From contig JAGHAM010000003.1 of the NCBI GenBank assembly GCA_021161465.1, positions 2,631 to 66,630 on the forward strand: a DNA stretch of 64,000 bases, read 5' to 3'. The DNA is from Candidatus Iainarchaeum sp. Lineage in GTDB: Archaea; B1Sed10-29; WALL01; JAGHAM01. Under the pieces are notes generated by a model. The model made no database searches, was not told the DNA's origin, and saw only the letters and a list, made by a program, of their open reading frames with translations. Below, one piece after another: positions 17,886 through 42,940 of the stretch; the stretch's first letter is position 1; each line of letters begins with the position of its first letter. A program made the translations under genes and the position numbers.

Positions 17886-18797
17886 ATGAAACTCGTGCTT
17901 TGTGTTCCTAATTTTAGTGAGGGAAGGAGCCAGGATATAATCAATGCAATTCGCGCTGAGATAGAGAAGGTCCCTAACACAAAAGTGATTTACTGTAAGG
18001 CTGATTCCGACCATAACAGGCTTGACTTAGCTTTTGTTGCCCCAATAAAAGAAGCTAAAGAGGCCGCTTTTAGAGCAACGAGAAAGGCGGCTGGTTTGAT
18101 AGATATGGACAAACACAAGGGGGAGCATCCACGCATGGGAGCAACAGATGTCATACCTTTTGTGCCTATGGGCAACACAACTATGGAAGAGTGTGTCGAG
18201 GCTGCAAGGGGTCTAGGCAAGCGCATAGGCGAGGAATTGAAAATACCTGTTTATCTCTACGAGGAGGCAGCAACAAGGCCAGACAGGAAAAATCTAGCAG
18301 ATGTCAGAAGAGGCGAGTATGAGGGATTGAAGGAAGAAGTTGGAAAAAACCCTGATAGGAAACCTGACTTCGGGCCCGAAAAGCTTGGCAAGGCTGGAGC
18401 TACTGCAGTTGGCGCGAGGATGCCATTGATTGCATTCAACGTCAACCTGGGAACCAGCGACTTAACTGTCGCCAAAAAGATAGCCAGGGCAGTTCGACAC
18501 TCCAGTGGCGGGCTTCGGTATGTCAAGGCAATGGGTTTTGAGCTGAAGGAAAGAGGAATAGTCCAAGTTTCGATGAACCTCACTAACTATAAGAAGACAC
18601 CAATATTTAGAGTCTTCGAGCTAGTCCGGCGCGAGGCGAAACGCTATGGCATCCCAGTTATCGGGAGCGAGATAGTTGGCGTGGTTCCTATGGACGCGCT
18701 TGTTAGTTGTGCTGATTTTTATTTGCAGTTAGAGAAGTTTAAGAAAGACCAAATACTTGAGAATAAGCTTTGGGGTGAGAAAAATGAAGGTAGTTGA
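17886..18797 (+). CDS. ftcD: Glutamate formiminotransferase (FTCD N-terminal part)
   Basis: CVPNFSEGR, DHNR, HKGEHPRMGATDVIPF, QVSMNL. Confidence 0.95.
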   Translation: MKLVLCVPNFSEGRSQDIINAIRAEIEKVPNTKVIYCKADSDHNRLDLAFVAPIKEAKEAAFRATRKAAGLIDMDKHKGEHPRMGATDVIPFVPMGNTTMEECVEAARGLGKRIGEELKIPVYLYEEAATRPDRKNLADVRRGEYEGLKEEVGKNPDRKPDFGPEKLGKAGATAVGARMPLIAFNVNLGTSDLTVAKKIARAVRHSSGGLRYVKAMGFELKERGIVQVSMNLTNYKKTPIFRVFELVRREAKRYGIPVIGSEIVGVVPMDALVSCADFYLQLEKFKKDQILENKLWGEKNEGS

Positions 18798-25596: not shown

Positions 25597-25667
25597 AAAA
25601 AGAAAAGTTTAAGTGGGGGCATAGGGGAGAGGAAAATACGCCCCCACTGGCGCCTCAAAGAAGCACC
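25597..25667 (-). ncRNA. Candidate stand-alone small RNA (~70 nt, two hairpins, U-tract)
   Basis: BRE/TATA GGAAAA-TTTATAAA at 25702-25689; stems GGUGCUUC/GAGGCGCC and AGUGGGGGCGUA/UAUGCCCCCACU; UUUUCUUUUU terminator; all three mismatches are G-U pairs only on the minus strand. Confidence 0.65.
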
Positions 25668-25741
25668 GAGTTATTATATGAGCAGTAATTTATAAATTTT
25701 CCTATCTGTTTTGGTGCTTATATCCTTGATAGTCCAGCGGT

Positions 25742-26959: not shown

Positions 26960-28927
26960 CTATCTAGCTTTCAAAGTGAAGGCTACAAGGTCCTCCTTTT
27001 CCAGAAGGTCATATATGGTGTCTATTGGCTTTTCCCATTCAGGAAGAATGAGCTTGGCCGCGCCGTTGCAGTATTGCTGCAGTTTTATCTCAGTGTCAAT
27101 CCATTTTTCAGTGTCTGGGTAGTTGTGGGTGAAACCATTTGCTGGATAAACCTCCTTAACTCCAAATCTGCTCTCATTCATCTTCCTGAACCTCTCTGAT
27201 GCCCGCCTTGCCTCTAGACAACCAAACAACAGGAATACATCACCGGCCTCATTGAAGCTTTCAAGTTTCCTGTTTACGTAGGCTAACACTTTGTCTGCAA
27301 AAGCGAACGCGTCTGGGCTCTTGTTTATCTCTCTACCAGTGTACTCCTTGACGGCGTTGTCCAGCCCTATGACATTGACAACAGTTGGCGCGTTTTCAAG
27401 CGAGTAATACTCCTCCGCGCCAAAGCTTTGTGTCAGGAAGGAGAGTATCTTATCCTTGTGGAGCCTTGTTTCGATTATTTTCTTCTTGGTTTCATGTGTT
27501 TTCCTGCCAGCCTCAAGGGCAGTATCCAGCTGGTTGAAGAATTGTGGGTCTTCTTTGCTAGTCATTGCTATCTTTGGAAGGTTTATTGAAATCTCCTGCA
27601 GAACACCACTCCTTATTGTAGTGAACCATTTTTTGTCTTTTCCCGGCATCAGCTGGTTCGGGAAAATCATATTAAGATTCTGTCCAAACCTTTTGTTCCT
27701 CAAATTCAGGAACGTCAGGTCGTTCTTCTGTAGGAATCTTTTTATTGGCTCTTCAAGTGCGTGGGGTATTGGGCCATCCCTAATTTTTAGAACAACCCGT
27801 GGTATATGGAAAGGCTTGCCATGCATGTCCCCCTCAGCCATCACTTCCAGGAACAAGCTTAAGAACCGTATGCTCTCCCTTTCATAGTCATAATATGTAT
27901 CCTGTCCTGTTATGCCTTTTGGCAGTATTGCTTTTTCTTTTTTAAGGAAAGCCGGCGTTTCAAGCTCAAAGTTTAGGGTAGGCCTGGCAAGGACGCCTTT
28001 TGCAGCATATATCTGGTTAAGCTCGTAAAGGAATGTCTGCATGATTTGTTTCACGCCGGCTTCATCCTCGTTTATGATATATGGTGAGAGAAAGCTGTTG
28101 AAGAAGTCGAATCCCTGGCCACCCGATAGATGGGTTTCACCGGTGATTAAAACGCGCAATGCGTGGCTCATCGCTACACCGGGCTTCTTTGCTGGTTTGG
28201 ATGCTATGCTTACCTCACGGTTTCCATCAGGGACAAAACCATTCTTAAGGAACCACCGCATGTCATTCTGCAGGCTGGTTGGCCTTGTTGCAAAGCAGGA
28301 TAAATCATGTATGTGGATGAGTCCAACTAAATGATATTTTGAGACTTCCTGGGGGAGAAGTTTAACCAGCGCGTACTCTTCAGCTATTGAGTCACCAAAC
28401 TTCTGGTGAAGCACTTCAGGGTTTGATGGATTCTCCCTTATCACTCTAGCAACATCATATATCGGTAAGCCCAAACGTGTATACTCTTTCTTTGCCTGCA
28501 TGTATTTTCGCTCTAACAGCTTTGAGTTCACCATCTCTCTTATCAATGGAGCTGAGATATGCCTGAGTTCAAGTCTCCGTATATCAGACTCAACTTCACC
28601 AGCTATCTCCTCGCAAACACTTTTTGCCAATGTTGTTTCCCTTAACAGGCTCTCAACAATTTTCTCCTTGCTGAAGGATGTCAAAATTCCCTCAGATGTT
28701 CTAACGTAAACCCGGTGGTAGTTCTCAAACTTGTTTGCAGATTCCTCATCCCTTTCTCTTAGCTTCTGTATTATAAGGTCGTTTATTTCCTCTTCTGACA
28801 TAGCTGGGGTAACTTGGTCTTGTAGGCCAAGCGCCACCTCGGTTGCGAGCCAGAAACTCACGCCGGCCTTGGTGCACTTGTCCTGAATCACTTTTGGGTT
28901 GAACTTTTGAGCAGGAGTAGAAGCCAT
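26960..28927 (-). CDS. Degenerate class III RNR (NrdD-like) with ATP-cone domains, lacking Zn ribbon and glycyl-radical loop
   Basis: VRTSEG..FSKEKI..SL.RET, SAPLIREMVN.KL, YTRLGLP.YDV, IHIHDL, KPAK, SINLPKIA; no C-terminal RxxGY. Confidence 0.8.
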   Translation of the reverse strand: MASTPAQKFNPKVIQDKCTKAGVSFWLATEVALGLQDQVTPAMSEEEINDLIIQKLRERDEESANKFENYHRVYVRTSEGILTSFSKEKIVESLLRETTLAKSVCEEIAGEVESDIRRLELRHISAPLIREMVNSKLLERKYMQAKKEYTRLGLPIYDVARVIRENPSNPEVLHQKFGDSIAEEYALVKLLPQEVSKYHLVGLIHIHDLSCFATRPTSLQNDMRWFLKNGFVPDGNREVSIASKPAKKPGVAMSHALRVLITGETHLSGGQGFDFFNSFLSPYIINEDEAGVKQIMQTFLYELNQIYAAKGVLARPTLNFELETPAFLKKEKAILPKGITGQDTYYDYERESIRFLSLFLEVMAEGDMHGKPFHIPRVVLKIRDGPIPHALEEPIKRFLQKNDLTFLNLRNKRFGQNLNMIFPNQLMPGKDKKWFTTIRSGVLQEISINLPKIAMTSKEDPQFFNQLDTALEAGRKTHETKKKIIETRLHKDKILSFLTQSFGAEEYYSLENAPTVVNVIGLDNAVKEYTGREINKSPDAFAFADKVLAYVNRKLESFNEAGDVFLLFGCLEARRASERFRKMNESRFGVKEVYPANGFTHNYPDTEKWIDTEIKLQQYCNGAAKLILPEWEKPIDTIYDLLEKEDLVAFTLKAR

Positions 28928-42373: not shown

Positions 42374-42940
42374 ATGGGGTTTAATTTTTTCAGGGATAGG
42401 ATAAAAGAGCAAGGTGGGAGTGAAGCTGAATATATAATTCTAAGAACACAGCTGGCGACCCTAACCCTATTCATATTTGCGATTTTCACAGTATTCTCCC
42501 AGTCGTACATCCTACTCTCCGCTGTGGTCTTGCTGTTCTTGCTTAACGTTTACTCGGTTATCAAACAGCTGAAGACTAGGGACAAGCGTGCCTATGAGTA
42601 CTTCTTCATCGGCTTGAATGTTTTGGGTGTTTTACTGGCAGCGTTCAACTTTGTCTTTCCGGGATTTCATCCCATATATGCTTTAGCTTATCTCGGAATT
42701 TTTTTCATATTCCTGATAGTCTTTCATGTGTTTTTCAAAAGGAACTTCACGTATGGGGAAGTTTTGGTTTCTGATGGCGAGTGGGCGGTTGTTAAGGCGC
42801 ATTATGATTTGTGCTCCGGAGTGAAAAATGGCTTTTATGCTGTCAGGAGCAAGAAAGGTATAAAAAAGGGAAAAGAGGTAAAAATAAGCGTTAAAGGATT
42901 CTTAGGGGAGAGGAGAATGCCTTGGAAGGTAATAGGGTAG
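42374..42940 (+). CDS. DUF2101-like membrane protein
   Basis: Four TM segments, then RNFTYGEV...YDL.SGVK.G.Y. Confidence 0.65.
   Translation: MGFNFFRDRIKEQGGSEAEYIILRTQLATLTLFIFAIFTVFSQSYILLSAVVLLFLLNVYSVIKQLKTRDKRAYEYFFIGLNVLGVLLAAFNFVFPGFHPIYALAYLGIFFIFLIVFHVFFKRNFTYGEVLVSDGEWAVVKAHYDLCSGVKNGFYAVRSKKGIKKGKEVKISVKGFLGERRMPWKVIG

Follow-up and report, generated by a model that had tools for sequence, protein, structure and literature searches.

A lineage-restricted small RNA family with a nearly frozen pyrimidine loop in one order of Iainarchaeota

Nearly all DPANN archaea are uncultured, and their genomes are tiny. The portions of the literature available to us gave no description of regulatory RNAs of Iainarchaeota or DPANN, and a literature search found no transcriptome survey for this lineage. 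The window analysed here, a stretch of 64,000 nucleotides from Candidatus Iainarchaeum sp., raises the question of whether such an RNA is encoded between two convergent genes and, if so, what it recognises. A preliminary description had read positions 25597-25702 as an unannotated small RNA (sRNA) gene on the minus strand, with its own promoter, two stacked hairpins and a loop resembling an anti-Shine-Dalgarno sequence. Comparative evidence from structure, covariation, a promoter-like box and distribution agrees with that reading.

The locus, its fold and its promoter-like signals

The source genome (G000) comprises 0.98 Mb in 40 contigs and is 93% complete; five DNA sequencing runs from two studies contain the locus in part or whole. 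The RNA is flanked by a same-strand gene of family ArsP_2 (PF11449), which we take to be the family formerly named DUF2899, and by a convergent AMMECR1 gene (PF01871), with nrdD lying one gene beyond ArsP_2 on the upstream side. Pfam thus recovers the two neighbours that had been noted as AMMECR1 and DUF2899. The BRE/TATA element, both hairpins, the 13-nt loop and the U-tract were each found on the minus strand where they had first been placed (Table 1). The gap between the TATA box and hairpin 1, put at about 22 nt, measures 21 nt, and direct reading confirmed that the three non-Watson-Crick pairs in the two stems are all G.U on this strand.

Table 1. Positions in the window of the RNA, its signals, its conserved neighbour and one candidate target
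Feature	Positions	Strand	Basis or remark
nrdD (anaerobic ribonucleotide reductase)	26960-28927	-	Pfam NRDD and ATP-cone; conserved upstream neighbour of the a-type RNA
BRE-like GGAAAA	25702-25697	-	Read directly
TATA box TTTATAAA	25696-25689	-	Read directly; with GGAAAA, putative sRNA promoter
Hairpin 1, GGUGCUUC-UUU-GAGGCGCC, 8 bp	25667-25649	-	Minimum-energy fold and covariation
Hairpin 2, AGUGGGGGCGUA/UAUGCCCCCACU, 12 bp, abutting hairpin 1	25648-25612	-	Fold and covariation
13-nt pyrimidine loop UUUUCCUCUCCCC in hairpin 2	25636-25624	-	Presumed functional site; family consensus UUCUCCUCUCCCC
Oligo-U termination signal (predicted), UUUUCUUUUU	25606-25597	-	Read directly
Predicted transcript, ~62-71 nt	25597-25667	-	Predicted start ~25667/25666, predicted end in the U-tract
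Candidate target GGGGAGAGGAGAA	42905-42917	+	Ribosome-binding site of OB-fold gene, 4 nt before its TTG start at 42922

We folded the 81-nt segment 25590-25670 (-) and compared it with 200 shuffles. The minimum-energy structure, at -34.3 kcal/mol, consists of exactly the two hairpins; the shuffled sequences had a mean of -18.2 kcal/mol (sd 2.6), which gives z -6.1, and none was as good. The plus strand folds far more weakly (-22.5 kcal/mol, z -2.1), with 8 of 200 shuffles as good. A protein-coding reading of the locus was rejected, the sole ATG opening a 19-codon frame that is absent in the related genome G001.

The centre of the TATA box lies about 26 nt upstream of G25667, and the usual archaeal spacing from TATA centre to start site is also about 26 nt; the transcript would therefore be predicted to start at the first base of hairpin 1. 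The box recurs across the 14 members of the family described below. An A/T-only, TATA-like 7-mer occurs at -45 to -15 before the first paired base in 14 of 14, where 1.74 would be expected from the members' own loci; examples are TTTATAAA, CTTAAATA, CTTTTAAA and TATATAAA. Several member genomes have a G+C content of 53-58%, and in GC-rich genomes the chance of such a box is 4-10%. Downstream, a T-run of at least four falls within 40 nt in 10 of 14 members. Between the upstream gene and the RNA, a T-run is absent in G000 and G001, so that in these two genomes read-through from the upstream gene probably also carries the RNA.

The RNA has no relative in Rfam. At gathering thresholds no family was reached anywhere in the window, the outcome of a check that the preliminary description had proposed. 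In E-value mode over the 701 nt around the RNA, the only match was to RF02791 (CcsR1), far below threshold: 25.3 bits at 25608-25664 (-), with an E-value of 6.4e-4 in the 701-nt search, against a gathering score of 65.3. Besides this shortfall, the UUU loop of hairpin 1, the presence of the loop motif in hairpin 2 only and the archaeal host led us to reject membership of the CcsR, or cuckoo, RNAs.

The failure to recognise the RNA as a tRNA, C/D, H/ACA or SRP RNA held up on examination, each class either lacking its diagnostic features here or being found elsewhere in the genome. A tRNA or split tRNA half was set aside on two grounds: the RNA contains no GTTCRANYC T-loop, and ARAGORN finds no tRNA in the window, though this program may miss tRNA genes of G000, which we read as carrying unusual introns. 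The 81-nt sequence has no UGAUGA and no CUGA, and Rfam snoRNA models score at most 12.3 bits, which speaks against a C/D box sRNA. An H/ACA sRNA would show a pseudouridylation pocket within a hairpin, a K-turn or K-loop and a 3' ACA; here both helices are uninterrupted, and the 3' tail is UUAAAC plus a U-run with no ACA. The genes for archaeal 16S, 23S, 5S, SRP and RNase P RNAs were all located in other parts of G000; for SRP RNA, RNase P RNA and 5S rRNA the genome's own copies score above thresholds.

Two observations on other RNA genes of this genome arose from these searches. About 20 copies of GGGCTTATAAGG plus a purine/pyrimidine hairpin plus CTTATTTTGAAC adjoin T-arm-like sequence on the opposite strand in G000 (including C2:9647, C12:4337, C13:4410, C20:14783, C21:8248, C28:291, C35:63728, C35:69800 and C40:57820). 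We read these copies as probable tRNA genes with a T-loop intron, and such introns would explain why ARAGORN sees few tRNAs in G000. The 16S rRNA gene (G000:C33:14393-16528, -) is 2136 nt long against a 1478-position model, an excess that points to one or more large insertions or introns.

Homologues, covariation and gene neighbourhoods

When the locus was compared with relatives by blastn, only the two-hairpin stretch aligned and the flanks were unalignable. Identity was 86% in G001, the sole genome of the same family, and 79% in one genome of another family. We searched 31 species genomes of the phylum, 13 of the same order and 18 of other orders, with covariance models built from 4 sequences (first) and 14 sequences (second). 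Counting the window, the first model detected 13 copies, spread over 9 of the order's 13 genomes, and the second model returned the same 13 matches. Conservation in relatives, another check proposed at the outset, is therefore present. By family, the carriers are 2 of 2 genomes in f1 (window counted), 6 of 6 in f2, 1 of 1 in f4 and 0 of 4 in f3.

The distribution is sharply bounded. The first model gave no convincing match in the phylum's other 18 genomes; a weak match in G016 (27.9 bits) was rejected for having neither TATA box nor loop, and it disappeared under the second model. The second model gave no match in 52 other archaeal genomes (4 from f3, 18 from the phylum's other orders and 30 further archaea). 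No diverged copy was found in the four f3 genomes by either model, and of 11 TCCTCTCCCC sites examined there, none sits in a hairpin-loop context. We also scanned one genome for each of 185,579 species by pattern. The a-type pattern (see below) gave 5 true copies among 30 matches, three of them labelled Candidatus Iainarchaeum, one 'archaeon' and one 'Archaeon', and the b-type pattern gave 3 true copies among 73 matches. A pattern scan of metagenomes yielded 1 true copy among 9 matches, which became member 14, and one of viral contigs yielded no copies. Judged from these genomes, the RNA family is confined to one order of Iainarchaeota (DPANN archaea).

The structure is maintained by compensatory change. 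In the 14-member alignment, which was fitted to the covariance model and to that extent favours the structure, pairing holds in 95.8% of cells, and both partners have changed in 17 of 20 pairs (57 cells). Hairpin 1 contributes 6 of its 8 pairs, with 100% of cells paired, and hairpin 2 contributes 11 of 12. None of 500 column shuffles reached the observed values, and sliding the partners by 1-3 columns left 45-57% paired. Given the same alignment, RNAalifold predicts both helices by itself, with 15 of 18 pairs compensatory. The alignment also holds 24 G.U cells that would be A.C mismatches if read from the other strand, which fixes the strand of the RNA as minus in the window. The covariation asked for by the preliminary description was thus found, and its suggestion of selection on RNA structure on the minus strand is upheld both by the strand difference in fold (z -6.1 versus -2.1) and by the compensatory changes that keep both hairpins in the homologues.

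Against these drifting stems, the loop stays nearly frozen. Its core, UCCUCUCCC, is invariant in 14 of 14 members, and the full 13-mer UUCUCCUCUCCCC is identical in 11 of 14; the window copy, UUUUCCUCUCCCC, differs from it by one C-to-U change. A variable scaffold around a frozen, unpaired pyrimidine 13-mer argues for recognition through the loop. We conclude with high confidence that the locus belongs to a genuine structured RNA gene family.

The family comprises two paralogous types. All nine carrier genomes have an a-type, and four f2 genomes have a b-type as a second copy. The a-type shares its strand with nrdD and is 0.04-2.3 kb downstream of it in 8 of 9 genomes, with minimum gaps of 35-61 nt. 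What stands between the two varies: ArsP_2 in G000, a dCMP deaminase gene in G004 and, in G011, a gene on the opposite strand. In G004 and G002 the a-type RNA is succeeded by a radical-SAM, NrdG-like gene, and in G012, on a short contig, the RNA is upstream of an nrdD paralogue. In f3, which is without the RNA, the end of nrdD runs into the beginning of the nrdG-like gene, leaving no gap between them. The b-type is divergent from an SMC/Rad50-like gene. In G007 and G002 (L047:1501-1972, L048) it ends 9-11 nt before a Mut7-C RNase ORF and could double as the 5' leader of that gene; in G005 and G011 all that is left of the Mut7-C sequence after the RNA corresponds to its first few codons (CTTTTTCTG). 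Hairpin 1 of the b-type consists of GGGGAGA paired to UCUCCUC, the same duplex as the loop would form with a target.

Other repeated elements occur in the same neighbourhoods. Immediately downstream of nrdD, four genomes from other orders (L146, L147, L148, L150) contain loops or stretches of the form (GG)CUCACCCAGC(C), some of them after an ORF of 24-36 codons, and another is found in G004, within the 425 nt without genes that separate the RNA from the NrdG-like gene (L040:1560-1985). A conserved palindrome, GTTAGGAnnTCTAAC, with an A-run and a TATA-like box after it, is located downstream of nrdD or of the RNA in several genomes (L040 at about 1595-1630, L041 in reverse, L146 and L148), and looks like an operator beside a promoter.

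We also came upon a second conserved intergenic RNA candidate, outside the window (G000:C4:17279-17419, +; L170:1500-1641), which we call the C4 candidate. A covarying stem, GAGGAAAGGUG/CACCUUUCCUC, encloses an invariant GCCCACCCAGCC..GAGAAA.CGAGGC. By blastn it is present in G001, G005, G007, G011, G012 and G009, doubtfully in G002, and not in f3 or f4. Neither this candidate nor the (GG)CUCACCCAGC(C) stretches matched Rfam, and the stretches are possibly the motif of the C4 candidate.

Candidate targets and competing explanations

What might the loop recognise? The best explanation overall, to which we give about an even chance, is that the family encodes a lineage-restricted sRNA of 62-71 nt that has its own promoter and whose loop acts in trans on start sites. 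Transcription would begin at the BRE/TATA promoter and end at the oligo-U tract. The two hairpins, presumably stacked coaxially, would serve as a scaffold from which hairpin 2 presents the near-invariant single-stranded loop UUCUCCUCUCCCC. The loop may then base-pair in trans with purine-rich sequences of the type GGGGAGAGG(A/G) at or next to translation starts, and such pairing could occlude the ribosome-binding site or alter mRNA stability. The candidate targets would be the starts of an OB-fold gene (42905-42917) and of a PilB-like ATPase gene (G000:C35:5913). Expression, action in trans and the identity of the targets are points that we infer, and action by anti-RBS pairing in particular we rate slightly below an even chance.

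Outside the RNA gene's own antisense, the OB-fold site forms the genome's strongest duplex with the loop (-23.6 kcal/mol). The site overlaps the 3'-terminal part of a DUF2101 gene and belongs to an operon that reads DUF2101/OB/TctA-like/JAB. The orthologous site matches at 13 of 13 positions in G001 and 12 of 13 in G004, and in f2 genomes complementarity goes down to about 10 nt; three genomes of genus g6 gave no DUF2101 match with the query used. The site codes for a conserved Gly-Glu-Arg-Arg, and the f3 relatives without the RNA keep GGGGAGAGGGA there.

The next strong start-site candidate is the gene at G000:C35:5913, which encodes a ferredoxin-fused T2SSE (PilB-like) ATPase and is followed by two T2SSF genes; it heads a type IV filament assembly operon. 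GGG(G)AGAG stands directly upstream of the ATPase start in 10 of 10 genomes of the order examined and is absent in 4 of 4 genomes of other orders with a placeable N-terminus (G014, where the match began at query residue 136, was excluded). This motif, too, is kept in f3, where the RNA was not found. Both target motifs are therefore independent of the RNA, which at best evolved to exploit them. In the order, nearly all of the short leader of the Fer4-T2SSE gene is GGGG(G)AGAGG(G/A) (L254-L258, L262-L265). Orthologues from other orders, by contrast, look leaderless, with a TATA box some 25 nt ahead of the ATG.

Across the whole genome, no regulon stands out. At -14 kcal/mol the loop has 297 sites in G000, 87 of them near starts, and eight shuffled C/U controls have 158-402 sites, with 42-106 near starts, so neither strong nor start-adjacent sites are enriched over shuffled C/U loops. 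For matches with at most one mismatch, a reversed control pattern is equally frequent. The motif GGGAGAGG is at start sites in 3 of 38 occurrences in G000, versus 8 of 16 for the canonical GGAGGTGA, which fits the 16S 3' end GAUCACCUCCU. The proposed complementarity of the loop to Shine-Dalgarno-like tracts is conserved at two candidate starts, but genome-wide it is no better than that of shuffled loops. The particular target first put forward, the cyclodeaminase start, did not hold up; the 11/13 match at 18772-18784 exists, but is one of 65 genome sites with at most two mismatches.

Several other partners and sites were tried and rejected. The 3' end of 16S rRNA reads GAUCACCUCCU, and the loop does not copy it. 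Pairing with 16S, 23S, 5S, SRP or RNase P RNA was matched by 0.04-0.89 of shuffled loops and gave no consistent site. The start of nrdD lies about 24 nt after a TATA box and has no purine site. A site in an eIF-2B-like gene (G000:C16) is internal coding sequence for G-E-R-R, and several other near-matches to the loop complement are likewise G-E-R-R codons. A near-perfect site in G007:C30 is antisense of a tRNA-like gene, judged from its T-arm and anticodon arm. The site of a YgjP-like gene has no orthologue in five relatives, and a small membrane ORF of G001:C52 has none in G000.

The lack of a statistically supported regulon, and the persistence of the presumed target motifs in f3 without the RNA, would also suit a protein-binding RNA, in which the loop is read by a protein that recognises single-stranded RNA in a sequence-specific way (a KH-type poly(C/U) binder would be one example) and the RNA acts as decoy, sponge or part of a small RNP. 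Thirteen nearly frozen loop positions exceed the needs of a typical 7-9-nt seed, and a scaffold with a displayed loop might well be suited to recognition by a protein. However, seeds of multi-target sRNAs may also be fully conserved, each RNA here carries a single motif, unlike typical sponge RNAs, and no protein gene is consistently adjacent across both paralogue types, nor was a candidate protein found. We regard this alternative as unlikely, if still deserving serious attention. A pairing partner other than mRNA has a slim chance: the loop could kiss another non-coding RNA that displays GGGGAGAGGAGAA, one of the two serving as antidote or sponge. An intergenic locus of G004 (L055:1449-1570, +, on G004:C5) has a TTTATAAA box about 24 nt before a hairpin, CGGGGUG...CACCCCG, whose loop holds the perfect 13-nt complement GGGGAGAGGAGAA and is followed by U-tracts; the fold of the locus has an energy of -35.2 kcal/mol (z -2.9). 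The case is isolated, though, the purine motif is partly paired internally in the predicted fold, and the opposite strand of the locus matches the family model weakly and in part (17.8 bits), so that a decayed family copy is another possible reading. G000 showed no comparable partner. The C4 candidate was rejected in this role; it contains a 13-nt complement in G000, but the purine strand covaries with its own stem partner and in G001 is not complementary to the loop.

The neighbourhoods raise another alternative, namely that the hairpins are a cis element, a 3'-UTR stabiliser or terminator of nrdD or ArsP_2 or, for the b-type, a Mut7-C 5' leader, with no free sRNA. The same-strand position downstream of nrdD in 8 of 9 genomes, at distances down to 35-61 nt, is as this would predict, as are the missing T-run before the RNA in G000 and G001, the TATA-like box of G005, which overlaps the nrdD stop codon, and the b-type ends 9-11 nt before the Mut7-C ORF in G007 and G002. 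The differing gene contexts (nrdD, the Rad50-like gene, the nrdD paralogue) argue against a mere terminator of one gene, as does the fact that the a-type RNA follows different genes in G000 (ArsP_2), G004 (dCMP deaminase) and G011 (an opposite-strand gene). The TATA-like box, which all 14 members have at a fixed spacing, even those in GC-rich genomes, where chance would supply it in 4-10%, is hard to reconcile with a cis element, which moreover leaves the invariant 13-nt loop unexplained, since archaeal termination needs only oligo-U. On balance we consider a purely cis role improbable. We give almost no credence to a DNA-level element, whether a palindrome bound by a protein or a site of recombination. 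Convergent genes can have inverted repeats between them that work as DNA sites, but the 24 one-strand G.U pairs would turn into A.C mismatches if the element formed a cruciform or were read from the other strand, the fold is strand-asymmetric, and the promoter-like box is on the same strand in all members.

Relation to known small RNAs and biological meaning

Taken as an sRNA that acts in trans through its loop, the family is previously undescribed and in kind resembles known C/U-loop anti-RBS sRNAs. In Firmicutes, C-rich single-stranded loop motifs of RsaE/RoxS pair with the G-rich Shine-Dalgarno regions of several mRNAs. Those RNAs differ in being bacterial, in their unrelated sequence and structure and in having at least two C-rich motifs per RNA.

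A closer likeness is to the CcsR1-4 'cuckoo' RNAs of Alphaproteobacteria (RF02791). Their hairpins display C/U-rich, anti-SD-like CCUCCUCCC loops that mask ribosome-binding sites in bacteria, and the RNAs often map to the 3' region of an adjacent gene and occur in duplicate copies in the same genome (PMC8034643). The Iainarchaeota RNA shares with them its hairpins, a conserved C/U loop motif (CCUCCUCCC in CcsR, UCCUCUCCC here), the position 3' of a gene and the intragenomic copies. It departs from them in that one of two hairpins bears the motif, the motif is a different one, there is an archaeal BRE/TATA and there is no DUF1127 neighbour, the genes beside the window RNA being nrdD, ArsP_2 and AMMECR1. 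CcsR is thus an analogue of the Iainarchaeota RNA and no homologue. Among archaea, sRNA154 and sRNA41 of Methanosarcina mazei are described as trans-acting RNAs with stable stem-loops whose loops mask ribosome-binding sites, also within polycistronic mRNAs (PMC5867862). They are likewise archaeal stem-loops, and the candidate OB-fold site here is also operon-internal. Unlike the RNA described here, which is known from uncultured DPANN genomes alone, sRNA154 and sRNA41 have been validated and belong to a methanogen; Rfam shows no sequence relation between them.

The sRNA family is a candidate for a new entry in RNA-family databases and is short enough for direct biochemical tests. Should the PilB-like ATPase of the pilus type be a true target, the RNA would bear on the regulation of the symbionts' attachment machinery. 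A more far-reaching scenario, which we think quite unlikely, is that a riboregulator or small-RNP subunit locking the GGGGAGAGG... class of starts arose in this order and controls the type IV filament assembly ATPase and a membrane operon, with which these nano-archaea, dependent on hosts, may make cell-cell contact; the paralogues, next to nrdD/dCMP deaminase and to the Rad50/Mut7-C RNase genes, would link that control to DNA-precursor supply and repair. If the function is ordinary fine-tuning, the RNA would be a useful, unsurprising addition to archaeal sRNAs. If the riboregulator reading is true, no regulatory RNA circuit would have been described earlier in a DPANN archaeon. The sRNA family offers a concrete entry to post-transcriptional control in reduced archaeal genomes.
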